Shown piece after piece: positions 46,733 to 56,804 of a stretch of 64,000 bases of DNA. Source of the DNA: Candidatus Multivorans sp. (GTDB taxonomy: Bacteria > Acidobacteriota > Thermoanaerobaculia > Multivoradales > Multivoraceae); the NCBI GenBank assembly GCA_965224025.1, contig OZ245033.1:928001-992000 (forward strand), written 5' to 3'. The translations under genes and the position numbers were made by a program. Within the stretch, counting starts at the first letter, position 1. Each line of letters opens with the position of its first letter. The notes under the pieces were generated by a model. The model worked only from the letters and a program-made list of their open reading frames with translations, was not told the origin of the DNA and ran no database searches.

Positions 46733-47001
46733 GAGCCACACGGGCAGAGTCGGAGTTGGCCTGCCCCGACGCACGAGACACGCGAGCGCCGTCCCGACTG
46801 CCCGCGTTCCGCAAGATGAAGACCACGGTGCCCGGCGGAGCACCTCAAGAACATGGTGGACCTGGGCCGGTCCGGGCACGTGTAGGGAGATGGATCAGGC
46901 GCGAAGATCCGGGCTGATATCTGAGCCCCCACAGCGCCACCGGCTCGCAGGTCCGGGCAGCCTGCTCGCCACACGAAATCCGGGACCTTGAGGCCCTCGT
47001 A

Positions 47002-47198
47002 AGCCGGCCCGGACATCAAGGCCGCCGCCTCGGCCGAGTTGCTTGACGCCCACGCGCTCGGTCTGCGTCAACAGTACGACAACCTCCTCCCCGTGATCGA
47101 CCGGGCGGGCAACACGTTGACGGAGGCGATGAAGAAGCTCGACCCCGAGCGGAGTGCCGATCCCAGGGGAGAAGGCGCTGCTGCTCTTGAACAGGCCG
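47002..47198 (+). repeat. ~195-bp duplicated gene-end segment, copy 1
   Basis: Near-identical to 53161-53356; encodes AGPDIKAAASAELLDAHALGLRQQYDNLLPVIDRAGNTL. Confidence 0.85.
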
Positions 47199-52420: not shown

Positions 52421-53038
52421 ATGGACCAAAGCCACACGCTCTACTACGCGACCAACCGGCGGCACGTCGGTCGGGATCGGTGGCGACCAAGCCGCTACAG
52501 CGGCGAATCCAGCAAGGACGGCGACGAGAACCTGCGTTTCGGCAAAGTCGTGCTGGAACTCGACGCCGATCGCGTGAATGCACACCTTGAAGAAACGTGC
52601 TCGAGAACGCACTGAAACGGACCCTGGAGTCCGGTCGACCGCCCCGGATCTTCGACCAGATCTTCCTTTGCACCCCTGACGTGGCAGACGACGTCTTCGA
52701 GCCCGGGCGGCCGTTCTGCGAGCTACCCGGCATGGCCGAGAACGTGACCGTGTACCACAACAAGGGCGATCTCGCGATGCCGGTCTCCGACTACACGAAG
52801 GGCAACACGGACCGTCTGGGCTGGCGAGGGGCGAACCGTCCGGCCGACCTCGACGGCCGCGTCCACATCGTCGACTGTGGTGGGATCGTCACCGGCGCGG
52901 TGGAGCACAGCTACTACCAGTGCGGCCCGGGGCAACGACGACATCGCCCAAAGCCTGGACGGCATCAGTGCCGACGACAAGGTGCGGCGCCGCAGCCCCG
53001 TACAGCACGGCTGGCCGAACGTGTGGCGGCTGCGATGA
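52421..53038 (+). pseudogene. Alpha/beta hydrolase (DUF900-like) pseudogene with internal deletion
   Basis: 'YYATNR...LRFG' N-terminus, then 'PDV...VTVYHNKGDLA..VS...RLG...HSYY'; nucleophile region missing. Confidence 0.6.
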
Positions 53039-53160
53039 TCGACGGAACCGGGTTCGAACACACCGTGGCCACGAGCGAGGTTCTCCAGATTGTCAGCCGC
53101 TAACGAAGTGGAACATTCCAAGACCATACGTGACGTCAGCCGTGCACTTCCCGCGCTCGT

Positions 53161-53356
53161 AGCCGGCCCGGACATCAAGGCCGCCGCCTCGGCCGAGTTG
53201 CTCGACGCCCACGCGCTCGGTCTGCGTCAACAGTACGACAACCTCCTCCCCGTAATCGACCGGGCGGGCAACACGCTAGTGAAAGCGGTCGAGAGGCTCG
53301 ACCCCGAGGAGAGCCCCGATCCCGACGGGGAAGGCTCGGCTGCCCTTGAAGAGGCC
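53161..53356 (+). repeat. Duplicated gene-end segment, copy 2
   Basis: Direct repeat of 47002-47198, ending EEA-TAG at the IS1182 target. Confidence 0.85.
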
Positions 53357-53451
53357 TAGGAGTGTCCGCAGCGTTGTCGCTGCGCTGTCGCGCAGGGAAC
53401 AGGCAGCGAGTAGCCAACGTTACAGCGGCGTCGTGGGTTCATAGAGTTGGC

Positions 53452-53607
53452 CGCGCTGGGCAGCGAGGCCGCGCAGGCACTGGTGTGTTGGCGCCCGACT
53501 AGGAGTTTGGCCCGGACCGTGATCGGCGCTCTGACGCTGGCGGCGCGGCTTGTGTCGCGACCCCGTATGCAAGATTGAGCTTTTCGCCGCGGTCTCTGCC
53601 CAGCGCG
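53452..53607 (+). ncRNA. Putative IS110 bridge/seek RNA
   Basis: Closing stem CGCGCTGGGCAG.. / ..CTGCCCAGCGCG; internal CAGGC, CTAGGAG (target halves) and CGGAC, ATGCAAG (donor halves). Confidence 0.7.
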
Positions 53608-53640
53608 ACGATTGGATTCCACATCTACGGGAGGCAGGGG

Positions 53641-54960
53641 ATGGCAAAGCGGAAGGCGGAGCGTCTGGAAGTCGTTCACCCGGATTGCGCCGGTGTGGAC
53701 GTAGGCAAGCGCAAGCACTACGTGGCGGTGGCCCCGTCGCGTTTCGAGCGGCCGGTGCGCAATTTCTCGTCGTTCACGGAGGACCTCGAGGCGATGGCCT
53801 CGTGGCTTCAGGAGTGCGGCGTGCGTGAGGTGGCGCTGGAGTCGACGGGGGTGTACTGGATTCCGGTGTTCGAGGTGCTGGACCGGGCGGGGTTCGAGGT
53901 GCATCTGGTGAATCCTCGGGCGACCAAGCAGGTGAGTGGCCGCAAGAGTGACGTTCTGGACTGCCAGTGGATCCGGCAGTTGATGAGCTACGGGCTCCTG
54001 CGCGGTGCGTTTCGCGCGCCGGACGAGTTGTGTCCGCTGCGTTCGTACACGCGGCAGCGCGCCCAGTTGGTCCGCGACCGCAGCCGCGCGGTGCAGCACA
54101 TCCAGAAGGCTCTGGTGCAGATGAACGTGCAGTTGGACAACGTGCTGAGCGACATCATGGGCAAGACCGGCCAGTTGATCGTGCGCGCGATCGTCGCCGG
54201 CGAGCGCGACGGCGCGGCGCTGGCCCGTCACCGGGACGGTCGCTGCAAGGCTGGTCCGGCTGTGATCGCGGCGAGTTTGCAAGGCAACTGGCGAGACGAG
54301 CACCTGTTCGCTCTGGGCCAGGCGCTGGCCCGCTACGACATGCTGCAAGGCCAGATCGAGATGTGCGAGAAGCGCATCGACGCCGAGCTCGACGGCCTGG
54401 CCCAAGACGGCGTCGAGGACGCGCCGCCGCCCGGTTCGAAGGCGCGCGAGCGCGCCCTGCGGAAGCGGCTGCATCGCATGCTCGGCGTGGACCTGGTCGC
54501 CATTCCGACGGTCGGCGTCGAAACCGCGCTGACCTTCGCCGCTGAGATCGGCCCGGACCTGTCCCGGTTTCCCTCGCAGGGCAACTTCTGCTCGTGGCTG
54601 TGTCTGGCTCCACCGACCAACATCAGCGGCGACAAACGGCTGAACGGCCCTCCCGTGAAGCAGACCAACCGGGTCGGCCAGACGCTGCGCCAAGCCGCCA
54701 CCACAGCCCGCAACAGCAAGACCGCCATCGGAGCCTCTCACCGCCGGCGTCTCCAGCACATGGAGAAGGCGAAGGCCATCAAGGCCACCGCTCATCAACT
54801 CGGCCGACTGATCTACGCCATGCTGACCCACGGCGAAGAGTACGTCGAGCGCGACCTCGCCGAAATGGAGGCCGTCCGACGCGAACGACAAATCAGAAAC
54901 CTGCAGCGTCAGGCCCGCCGCCTGAATCTGGCTCTCGTGCCGACCGAACATGCCGCCTGA
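53641..54960 (+). CDS. IS110 DEDD recombinase/transposase
   Basis: 'GVDVGK', 'ALESTG', 'KSDVLDC', 'IPTVG', 'AEIGPDLSRF', 'NISG'; GGGAGG upstream. Confidence 0.9.
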   Translation: MAKRKAERLEVVHPDCAGVDVGKRKHYVAVAPSRFERPVRNFSSFTEDLEAMASWLQECGVREVALESTGVYWIPVFEVLDRAGFEVHLVNPRATKQVSGRKSDVLDCQWIRQLMSYGLLRGAFRAPDELCPLRSYTRQRAQLVRDRSRAVQHIQKALVQMNVQLDNVLSDIMGKTGQLIVRAIVAGERDGAALARHRDGRCKAGPAVIAASLQGNWRDEHLFALGQALARYDMLQGQIEMCEKRIDAELDGLAQDGVEDAPPPGSKARERALRKRLHRMLGVDLVAIPTVGVETALTFAAEIGPDLSRFPSQGNFCSWLCLAPPTNISGDKRLNGPPVKQTNRVGQTLRQAATTARNSKTAIGASHRRRLQHMEKAKAIKATAHQLGRLIYAMLTHGEEYVERDLAEMEAVRRERQIRNLQRQARRLNLALVPTEHAA

Positions 54961-55117
54961 ATCGCGCAACCTGCGCTGCCAACAAGGAACCCCTACCCGT
55001 TTGTTCCATGCAAGCCTGTAGGGCATAGTCGCTGCTCTCCGTCATTTGGTCTGGTGTGTCTTGCAGGTGAGAATGGAGTTGCCCCGGTTTCGTGGTCAGT
55101 TCGGTTGTGGAGGCGTG

Positions 55118-56635
55118 ATGAGCAAGCAGTATCGTGGTTGGACTCAGGATCAGCTGTACCTGCTGCCTCCCTCGATGCGGGATTGGCTGCCGGAGGGTCA
55201 TCTGGCGTGGTTCGTTCTGGACGTGGTGGGTGCTGTGGACATCAGCGAGATCGAGCGTGCCATTCAGAGCAAGGACGGCCGGGGTCAGCGTCCGTACCAT
55301 CCCCGGATGATGGTGGCGTTGCTGGTGTACGCATACTGTTCGGGGTTGTACTCGTCTCGTCGTATTGAGCGTGCGTGTCAGGAGAGTGTGCCGTATCGCG
55401 TGATCACGGGGGATGTGCAGCCTCACTTCACGACCATCAACGAGTTTCGCCGGGTCCATCGGGGGCACTTCGAGTCGTTGTTCGTGGAGATTCTTCTGTT
55501 GTGCGGCAAGTCGGGTTTGGTGAAGCTGCAGCAGGTGTCAGTGGACGGCACGAAGGTGCGGGCCGACGCGAGCAAGCACAAGGCGATGAGCTACGGCCGG
55601 ATGGTGTCCGAGGAGAAGCGTCTGGGTGGCGAGGTCAAGCGTCTGATGGCTCTGGTCGAGTCGGCGGATACGGAGGAGGACGTTCTTCACGGTGCTGGGG
55701 TGCGTGGCGACGAGTTGCCGGAGGAGCTTTCCCGTCGTGAGAGCCGGTTGTCGCGGATTGAGGCGGCGAAGTCCCGGTTGGAAGCGGAGGCTCGGGAGAC
55801 TCGCGCCAAGGAGCTTCGGGATCAGGCCGCTGGCATGGAGGAAACGGCGTCGCGGCATGAGAAGCCTTCGGTGCAGAAGGGTCTTCGGACGCGGGCGTCG
55901 AATCGGCGTGGCGAGGCGGAGAAGCTGGCGCCTCCGGTCGAGGCCGAAGACAAGGCCATCGACGAGTTGCCGCTGAAGTCGACGCGGGCGACGGTGGAGG
56001 GTTTGCCGAGGGACGAGGCCCAAGGGAACTTCACGGACCCGGAGAGCAGCATCATGAAGGGGCGGGACGGTTTCGTTCAGGCGTACAACGCGCAGTTGGC
56101 GGTGGACGAGGAGGCTCAGGTGATCGTGGCGCAAGGCGTGACGAACCAGCCGCCGGACAACGGCAATCTCAGGCCGATGGTGGCGCGCGTGGCGGGCGCT
56201 CTCGGTGAGGCGCCGACGAACGTGACGGCGGATGCCGGCTACTGGCACTCGGAGGTGGAAGAGCAGGTGCGGGAGCTTGGCAGTGAGGCATGGGTATCGA
56301 CCCAGGGCAGTTCCTCCAGCGAACCCGGTCCCTCTGATGAGAATGCCGACACGATCGACCCGGTCAAGCGGATGCAGTCGCGTCTCGCGAGCTCCGAAGG
56401 GCGTGCTCTATATGCCCGCCGCAAGGCGGTAGTCGAACCGGTCAACGGACAGATCAAGGAGGCTCGAGGATTCCGCCAGTTCTCGTTTCGGGGCTTGGAA
56501 GCCGTGCGCACGGAATGGACCCTTGTCTGCTTGTGCCACAACCTCCTCAAACTGTTCGGCCACTGCCTCCAAACTGCCCAAGAGGCGGCCCATTCAGGTC
56601 AACTGGACGGGAATCCGCTGCCCCAAGCCGCCTGA
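55118..56635 (+). CDS. IS1182-family transposase
   Basis: 'QLYLLPPS..WLPEGHLA', 'PYHPRMM', 'SSRRIE', 'VDGTKVRADAS', 'YNAQ', 'ADAGY', 'YARRKAVVEPVNGQIK'. Confidence 0.9.
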   Translation: MSKQYRGWTQDQLYLLPPSMRDWLPEGHLAWFVLDVVGAVDISEIERAIQSKDGRGQRPYHPRMMVALLVYAYCSGLYSSRRIERACQESVPYRVITGDVQPHFTTINEFRRVHRGHFESLFVEILLLCGKSGLVKLQQVSVDGTKVRADASKHKAMSYGRMVSEEKRLGGEVKRLMALVESADTEEDVLHGAGVRGDELPEELSRRESRLSRIEAAKSRLEAEARETRAKELRDQAAGMEETASRHEKPSVQKGLRTRASNRRGEAEKLAPPVEAEDKAIDELPLKSTRATVEGLPRDEAQGNFTDPESSIMKGRDGFVQAYNAQLAVDEEAQVIVAQGVTNQPPDNGNLRPMVARVAGALGEAPTNVTADAGYWHSEVEEQVRELGSEAWVSTQGSSSSEPGPSDENADTIDPVKRMQSRLASSEGRALYARRKAVVEPVNGQIKEARGFRQFSFRGLEAVRTEWTLVCLCHNLLKLFGHCLQTAQEAAHSGQLDGNPLPQAA

Positions 56636-56804
56636 TGGCCACATCCCGGCCCAGCTATCACGGGCTGACACCCCCCAAACCCAAAGTGCCGACCTCCTCC
56701 ACTCCCCTACAACTGCGACGAACGCCTCAGCCCGTACCGCAGAGCCCGGATACCTCAGTGCTTGCCCCGCCGGCCAACCTATGGCCTACAAGCTCCTAGG
56801 CTCC

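Follow-up and report, generated by a model that had tools for sequence, protein, structure and literature searches.

Mobile elements at the locus

The window, by which we mean the entire 64,000-nucleotide stretch of DNA that was analysed, carries an IS110-family element of 1652 bp (53363-55014, plus strand) that occupies the left end of an IS1182-family element. It consists of a 278-bp non-coding left end, a gene at 53641-54960 and a 54-bp right end, and since an AG core stands at both junctions its boundary is ambiguous by 2 bp. The junctions read as the original prediction had them, CCTAGG-AG^TGTCCGC on the left (53355-53369) and CCATGCA-AG^CCTGTAG on the right (55006-55021; ^ marks the cut or junction, here and below). 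The features of the two elements are as follows.

53356-53362, plus strand: left target and core, CTAGG + AG, identical to the guide at 53499-53505 and found in front of 14/14 copies
53356-53359, plus strand: CTAG, the probable 4-bp duplication of the IS1182 element
53360-53362, plus strand: GAG, the first 3 bp of the IS1182 element
53367-53384, plus strand: left-end hairpin CGCAGCG-TTGT-CGCTGCG, found at the left ends of 25 homologues, with a candidate role in recognition
53392-53403, plus strand: left subterminal inverted repeat GCAGGGAACAGG, complementary at 9/12 positions to its partner at 55000-55011
53641-54960, plus strand: recombinase gene, 439 aa, with a DEDD domain and a C-terminal Ser-Gly motif
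55000-55014, plus strand: right end of the IS110 element, the subterminal repeat TTTGTTCCATGC followed by AAG, the last two bases being the core
55015-56795, plus strand: body of the IS1182-family element ("type A"), 1784 bp with the GAG at 53360-53362; transposase gene at 55118-56635
56785-56799, minus strand: unoccupied target at the right end of the window's IS1182 element, CTAGGAG^CTTGTAGG (site C1 984799, minus strand)

The recombinase is recognized by the Pfam models PF01548 and PF02371, scores 270.7 bits against the NCBIfam model NF033542, "IS110 family RNA-guided transposase" (cut-off 140), and aligns with the IS621 transposase 8wt6 (E = 1.1e-8), which together place it in the RNA-guided IS110 family. 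Only the N-terminal domain aligns well with 8wt6; the alignment covers the catalytic Asp, Glu, Asp-x-x-Asp and Ser-Gly (GvDvgK/GiDtaK, lEsTG/iEaTG, sDvlD/tDtvD and iSGd/eSGs). The host genome, of 5.14 Mb and 68% G+C, holds 14 near-identical full copies of the element, each with 0-2 positions differing from the window copy and all with identical guide loops. Empty sites in the same genome, in which CTAGGAG is joined straight to the right flank, support the boundaries given above, and the GGGAAC/GTTCC core of the subterminal repeats covaries in the homologues L057/L059, L061 and L078. Contigs of run X1 on 53000-55400 break at 53356 and 55014, with a depth of ~280 inside the IS and ~28 outside; among the contigs of runs X1, X3, X5 and X6 on this interval, none spans the IS, and neither a circle junction nor an empty site was seen. 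Outside the window lies a diverged paralogue of the recombinase with 85% identity (G000:C1:2129247-2130563, minus strand), which has an intact right end (TTTGTTCCATGCAAG) and no recognizable left end or RNA region.

The neighbouring element shows the hallmarks of the IS1182 family. Its transposase scores 347.2 bits against NCBIfam NF033551 (cut-off 270), its ends read CTAGGAGCCTGTAGGGCATAG and, on the other strand, CTAGGAGCTTGTAGGCCATAG, inverted repeats that agree at 19 of 21 positions, and CTAG stands on both sides. This CTAG is probably the target duplication of the element, which is plausible because a 4-bp duplication has been reported for ISPse1 of the same family (PMC3281130). A search for an empty site of the window's IS1182 element found none: the gene on the left flank continues differently in relatives, and the right flank is without a match. 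In related genomes the homologous left-flank gene runs past the IS1182 position, which suggests that the IS1182 element interrupted a gene when it inserted. The ~200 nt that close the left flank (53154-53355, from the query 52700-53355 and within a short open frame at 53090-53359) recur ~6 kb upstream, at 46993-47196, with 87% identity. Type A is represented in this genome by one full copy, that of the window, and by one copy truncated to its right 999 bp; tblastn found no IS1182 transposases there beyond these two known copies. Two of the three type A ends are occupied by the IS110 element, the left end in the window and the right end elsewhere, and the third (CTAGGAG at 56793-56799, minus strand) is free.

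A predicted bridge-type RNA and its guides

Bridge and seek RNAs are established for the IS110 family, and comparison with homologues predicts that the left non-coding end of the present element encodes such an RNA at ~53450-53609. The alignment comprises 26 distinct elements of 44-86% protein identity, with relatives from assemblies of Pseudomonadales and other Gammaproteobacteria, and its consensus fold has 39 pairs in 7 helices. Across the 26 sequences 94.9% of the cells are paired and 25 pairs show compensatory changes; none of 500 shuffles reached the values of the fold on any of five measures, and slid controls are ~40% paired. The long non-coding end thus holds a structured RNA with two internal loops (53471-53505 and 53529-53584), and the perfect 12-bp stem described in the original prediction is there, pairing 53452-53463 with 53596-53607. 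The parts of the RNA are listed below.

53450-53609, plus strand: core of the bridge-type RNA, supported by covariation, with P1 around a target loop and a donor loop
53450-53461 with 53598-53609: P1, which closes the entire structure
53467-53470 with 53509-53512: P2, which carries the target internal loop (5' strand GCGCAGGC, cap P3, 3' strand with CTAGGAG)
53515-53518 with 53591-53594, and 53525-53528 with 53585-53588: P4 and P5, which carry the donor internal loop (cap P7, 3' strand with ATGCAAG)
53471-53478, plus strand: right-target guide GCGCAGGC, on the best diagonal of right-flank complementarity and varying with the flank
53499-53505, plus strand: left-target guide CTAGGAG, identical to the left flank and core and hence pairing with the bottom strand
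53513-53517, plus strand: CGGAC, formerly taken for a donor guide, part of P4 and not a guide
53567-53573, plus strand: donor guide ATGCAAG, identical to the right IS end and core

Folded as a single sequence, the 279-nt left end has a minimum free energy that is not better than that of shuffles (z = +0.32), and a scan of 53200-55200 against Rfam gave 5 matches, all far below their gathering scores, and no bridge-RNA family. The case for the structure therefore rests on copies, relatives and covariation rather than on energy. A scan of 53300-53700 for consensus promoters and terminators found none. Homologues conserve a TATAAA-like box (TATAAAG, GTAAGG, TACAAAG) 6-8 nt upstream of P1 (columns 6-12 of alignment A1), and the window reads CATAGAG at the same position (53440-53446); the box may be the -10 element of an internal RNA promoter. 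An RNA read from the minus strand was considered and rejected, since the core-pairing bases of every guide would then be 5', contrary to IS621.

All motifs of the original prediction are present in the order it gave, namely CAGGC (53474-53478), a hairpin, CTAGGAG (53499-53505), CGGAC (53513-53517) and ATGCAAG (53567-53573). In 156 nt of one strand of this genome the two 7-mers are rare, with chance counts of 0.002 for CTAGGAG and 0.003 for ATGCAAG, and the two 5-mers are near chance level (0.31 for CAGGC, 0.34 for CGGAC). Every alignment column was then scanned against every flank and end position in 24 homologues, those of the 26 aligned elements for which both ends could be fixed (the other 2 lack an end motif), and with IS boundaries set by homology to conserved end motifs and not by the guides. 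The best diagonal for identity with the left flank falls on the CTAGGAG columns, with a 97% match and a mean mutual information of 1.05 bits, the highest in the whole scan; that for identity with the right IS end falls on the ATGCAAG columns (98%, 0.48 bits); and that for complementarity to the right flank falls on columns with CGCAGG, within GCGCAGGC (62%, 0.38 bits). Three guides thus covary with their DNA, and CTAGGAG and ATGCAAG keep the roles first given to them, the one reading the left target with the AG core and the other the right IS end with the core. The left guide occurs in at least nine forms, which track the flanks and include CCAGGAG, ATGCAAG, ATGAAAG, ATGCGAG, ATTGTAG, GAGGGAG, ATTCTAG and ATAGGAG, and the donor guide takes eight that track the right ends, including ATGCGAG, ATGGAAG, ATGAAAG, ATAAGAG, ATGAGAG, ATGGGAG and ATAGAAG.

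It could be argued that the protein alone picks the site and that the left-end matches are leftovers of ends or of earlier insertions, and the 5-mers, taken by themselves, are indeed at chance level. We find this barely credible, given that the two 7-mers lie in unpaired loops of a covariation-supported fold and change together with flanks and ends across homologues, and that an RNA-guided mechanism has been shown experimentally for IS621 and ISEc21 (PMC11208160, PMC11187229).

The two 5-mers fared differently under the same comparison. CAGGC is complementary to the right side of the target, as proposed, and is only the 3' part of the longer guide GCGCAGGC, the complement of which, G^CCTGCGC, is a closer match to most insertion sites than to the window's IS1182 end. 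Within families this guide and its flank go together: the guide complement is GCCTGCGC and the right flank G^CCTGCGCG for the element of the window, GCCCGCG and G^CCCGCGCC for the L029 family (5/13 copies), and GCGTGC and G^CGTGCGCC for L042. Right-flank pairing is loose, many single-copy homologues being unmatched, and several of these precede another left-end-like sequence; the target loop pairs with both target strands, with a right-guide fit that is clearer within families than in the 24-homologue scan. CGGAC, by comparison, was dropped as a donor guide. It overlaps helix P4, 4/4 pairs of which show compensatory changes, it gave no left-IS-end signal across the 24 homologues, and TTTGGCCCGGACCG around it is conserved although the left IS ends differ (TGTCCGC, TACCCAC, TTCTCGC, TTTTCAC etc.); the match to the left end is a coincidence in the window copy.

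For the left IS end as a whole, no complementary diagonal stood out in the 24-homologue scan, and of the four pairings that IS621 would lead one to expect, three were recovered: among the scanned columns the donor loop offers a guide for the right end and none for the left. The left-end hairpin is kept among homologues while the sequence of its stem varies, and this conserved hairpin would be a candidate recognition feature. The 5' strand of the donor loop (CTCTGACGCT, 53529-53538; A1 columns 110-119) holds a box, TGACGC, that in many homologues matches the bases immediately preceding the left subterminal repeat (53386-53391) by identity and not by complementarity. The box changes with the left-end bases in L068 and L075 (TTCAC), and the longest common run is only 4-6 nt.

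Several relatives carry other left-target guides. In L024/L025, L043, L046, L048, L049 and L073 the guide (A1 columns 80-86) reads ATGCAAG, ATGAAAG, ATGCGAG or ATGGAAG, and each of these elements is directly preceded by an IS110-type right end, belonging to a miniature or to a full element; they represent natural re-aiming at the family's own right end, with tandem arrangements as the outcome. The right flank of L048, like that of L057, is a repeat of the left end of the element itself. A contig of run X3, which comes from another sample, has a loose end at window position 53504 and joins the conserved part of the RNA to another left-target guide (...CCCGAATGCA), and guide-swapped variants therefore coexist in nature.

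Landing sites in this and related genomes

The original prediction asked whether other copies also lie at CTAGGAG^CCTG in IS1182 ends. All 14 copies do follow CTAGGAG, and only 2 of the 14 lie in the window's IS1182 type, their right flank being C(C/T)TGTAGG, the ends of that type. The right flank is an NNTGCGC(C/G)(G/C)CAG-type sequence in 8 copies, a hairpin repeat (ACTGCGCTGCGTCC...) in 2, ACTGCGCAGG in 1 and a miniature IS110-like element in 1; in all, 4 of the 14 adjoin sequences of a non-IS1182 type (two hairpin repeats, one mini-element and one other). Outside the IS the genome has 122 CTAGGAG sites, and occupancy follows the right flank: where 6 or more of 8 right-flank positions pair (42 sites), 13 hold a copy, whereas the 80 sites with fewer pairs hold 1 between them (Fisher p = 2.4e-6). 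The left half and core therefore appear to be read strictly (14/14 copies here, 12/13 in the L029 family), and the right half over ~4 nt with more pairs preferred, the same pattern as has been described for the short and extended right guides of IS621 (PMC11208160).

These sites bear on how narrowly the target should be drawn. If the RNA were programmed specifically against the left end of the window's IS1182 copy type, one would point to the window copy, which sits at CTAGGAG^CCTGTAGG with G+CCTG and one wobble paired by the guide, and to the occupation of two of the three ends of that type. Set against this, 12 of the 14 copies lie elsewhere, one of the two that do hit IS1182 occupies an end of the right type, and the full guide complement makes 7-8 of 8 pairs at other sites versus 6 of 8 at the window's IS1182 end, all copies having the same guides. 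So narrow a specificity is very improbable. What stands of the earlier proposal is that the guides read an IS1182-family tip; the window's IS1182 element is hit at two of its type's three ends, and the right-target guide matches a second IS1182 type better.

That second type (CCTGCGCG/C...) is present in this genome only as short palindromes and solo ends, with no transposase gene. "REP-like" flanks carry its terminal sequence, e.g., CTAGGAGCTTGCGCCGCAGAAC...GTTCGCGGCGCAAGCTCCTGG, and the link from palindrome to second IS1182 type rests on a common terminal sequence of ~21 nt. A loose pattern for type-B ends gave 292 hits in the genome, mostly random at 68% G+C, of which 38, preceded by CTAGGAG, CCAGGAG or ATGCAAG, are meaningful.

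Related genomes hold the second type in full. Its transposase was searched for in the genomes of four relatives and matched in three (G001-G003), which gave 19 loci with 35 readable ends of a ~1.57-kb IS1182-type element. The free ends, 27 of 27, read CTAGGAG^NNTGCGCC(G/A)TAG(G/A)A with unrelated sequence outside, and the 8 of 35 that are occupied read ...TTCCATGCAAG^NNTGCGCC..., an IS110-type right end at the same position. Full-length copies in the three genomes end in CTAGGAG^NNTGCGCCGTAG, and the same ~21-nt sequence stands at both tips. Among the IS110 loci collected from relatives, 5 abut IS1182-type transposase sequence. In L040 the right flank CCTGCGCCGTAGAAAG... is continuous with the beginning of an IS1182-type transposase, followed by an internal deletion and then the C-terminus of the gene, and the contig ends in ...CGGCGCAAG^CTTGCATGGAAC, the right end of a second, inward-facing IS110 copy; both ends of one internally deleted IS1182-type copy are thus occupied. 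In L045 a 5'-truncated IS1182-type gene comes after the flank GCTGCGCCGTAGGAAC..., and the element ends in ...TCCTACGGCGCACGCTCCTAG, so that the left end is occupied and the right end free. The insertions at IS1182 ends, 2 in the own genome, 8 in G001-G003 and 2 in L040, are without exception placed between CTAGGAG and NNTG, the right IS end being the one turned towards the IS1182 body, and thus represent repeated independent insertion at one position and in one orientation within the terminal repeat of another element. Given the terminal sequence shared by full-length IS1182 elements of relatives, the landing site of the clade would be the IS1182-family tip; the clade as a whole, on this sequence comparison, appears to target the tips of IS1182-family terminal repeats and not only the left end of the window copy.

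A more conventional account is that this is an ordinary REP-targeting IS110 element, the palindromes being host REPs unrelated to IS1182 and the IS1182 ends being hit only because they carry CTAGGAGC(C/T)TG by coincidence. REP targeting by the IS110 family is well known (PMC11208160; PMC12288879), most sites in the own genome are short palindromes without a transposase, and 5 of the 13 sites of the L029 family are a hairpin with a 9-bp stem. We nonetheless regard this account as unlikely, as the ~21-nt sequence lies at both tips of full-length IS1182-type elements in three genomes, where 8 of 35 tips are occupied, and as insertions into two distinct IS1182 types share one relative position. 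Taken together, it is highly probable from these comparisons that the region is the bridge (seek) RNA of an active IS110-family element, aimed at the tips of IS1182-family terminal repeats.

The own genome also contains ~20 miniature IS110-like elements of ~60 bp, none of them in the window (examples are G000:C1:527079-527150, 1070791-1070865 and 690770-690844, minus strand). Each is composed of a left-end hairpin, a subterminal repeat and a right end, TCGAGTCGCGGCGTCCGCGCCGCGCTGACGCACAGGAAACAGGG(Y)TTGTTCCATGCAAG; the full element's donor guide fits the right end, but the left end is unlike that of the full element. Of 22 pattern hits, 11 follow CTAGGAG, 4 follow CCAGGAG and 2 follow another right end, many of them with NNTGCGC next. 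The miniatures have the appearance of non-autonomous derivatives sharing the full element's landing site. A second hairpin repeat, TCAGCGCTGCGTCCGCGCAGCGCTGACTTGCA(G/T)GGAAC, also follows CTAGGAG (e.g., G000:C1:1161177 and 722289, minus strand) and has the IS110 right end, in reverse complement, as its terminal sequence; the full IS110 copies at 111519 and 4161482 both precede sequences related to it.

Relation to known guided elements and proposed mechanism

IS621 of the IS110 group is a close parallel (PMC11208160, PMC11208158). Both elements have a DEDD/Ser recombinase, an RNA in the long left end upstream of the gene, and two internal loops built of stem, guide, stem-loop and guide, with one guide per loop identical to the left half and core and one, found here in the target loop, complementary to the right half. 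They further share a 2-nt core in target and donor (here AG, or CT on the other strand) and a short effective right-target guide with optional extension. They differ in that the guide complementary to the top strand comes second in the target loop of IS621, the left guide lying 5' of the right one, whereas here, in the direction of the gene, it comes first, GCGCAGGC preceding CTAGGAG. In addition, the closing stem of the present RNA encloses both loops, a guide pairing with the left IS end was not found, and the recombinase has 439 aa, as compared with the 328-residue chain in 8wt6. The order of left and right target guides followed by left and right donor guides, ascribed to this RNA in the original prediction, is recovered together with a CT core when the sites are read on the other strand; on that reading the gene and its RNA are on one strand and the ends on the other. 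In the gene's own orientation, the guide order is the reverse of that of IS621 and ISEc21 and the same as in IS1111 members (PMC11187229, PMC11208158).

With the IS1111 elements that use seekRNAs (PMC11187229), the present element shares subterminal inverted repeats, here with a 3-bp right extension (AAG). The non-coding region of IS1111 elements is downstream of the gene; here it is upstream (278 bp, vs. 54 bp downstream). Their left extension beyond the repeat is 7 bp, as against ~29 bp with a hairpin here, and their recombinases of 330-350 aa are much shorter than the one described above. The IS1111 group is also marked by repeats of 7-17 bp; those of the present element are short and agree at 9/12 positions. 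Judged on region, repeats and protein length, the element falls outside that group, and its long recombinase and upstream non-coding region are features of the IS110 group (PMC11187229).

Landing in other mobile elements is itself a known behaviour, and what appears to be new here is the use of IS1182-family ends as targets. IS4321 and IS5075 land in the terminal repeats of the Tn21 family. For ISEc21 the target is a conserved part of IS3-family transposase genes (PMC11187229). As in IS4321/IS5075-like elements, an element of IS110/IS1111 type finds its target inside another mobile element at a fixed position and in a fixed orientation; in the present case that host is the IS1182 family, short derivatives included, with a cut that would fall 3 bp into the terminal repeat and a recognized sequence that takes in the CTAG next to it. 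The suggestion of a hyperparasite thus captures the recurrent insertion into the ends of another IS and is not new in kind. Among titles and the opening parts of abstracts, no report pairing IS110 elements with IS1182 ends was found; the supplementary target lists of two of the studies (PMC11187229, PMC11208160), which cover hundreds of elements, may include such cases. Overall, the original prediction was largely right, with a family of ends in place of a single target, a longer right guide, and one guide that is not a guide.

By analogy with IS621, the IS would form a circle, and the DEDD/Ser recombinase, guided by an RNA produced from the left end, would carry out strand exchange between this circle and the target at the AG core. 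In the target loop, the 5' strand GCGCAGGC would pair with the top strand right of the cut (the core G and CCTGCGC), and the 3' strand CTAGGAG with the bottom strand left of the cut. In the donor loop, the 3' strand ATGCAAG would pair with the right IS end and core, and the hairpin at the left IS end may take part in recognition there. The target loop would thereby spell the tip of the IS1182-family repeat, that is, the CTAG flank, GAG and then C(C/T)TG..., and the element would land, in one orientation, 3 bp inside the IS1182 terminal repeat if CTAG is the duplication. The best-matching sites would be the repeat of the second IS1182 type, and the window's type would be a slightly weaker match that is yet hit at two of its three ends.

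A broader picture, which we offer only tentatively, is that an IS110 clade in high-GC Gammaproteobacteria lives on the tips and miniatures of IS1182 elements, each insertion separating the outermost 3 bp from the rest of the repeat, which probably leaves that end inactive until excision of the guest. It would do so with an undescribed architecture, in which an upstream RNA has the guide order of the IS1111 type and a closing stem round both loops, and in which the left end is read by a DNA hairpin or another non-pairing feature, with relatives re-aimed at the right end of their own miniatures.

Together with the 13 copies of one related genome and the many relatives that have been re-aimed, the 14 copies of this genome form a well-populated natural set of guides and targets. 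In this set the element shows a strict reading of the left half and core and a loose, extendable reading of the right half. The arrangement of its loops departs from the IS621 model, and the missing fourth guide points to a mode of donor recognition that is worth testing. Finally, IS1182-family ends, with a landing sequence that two different IS1182 types have in common, would join the short list of mobile-element ends that RNA-guided elements use as landing pads.
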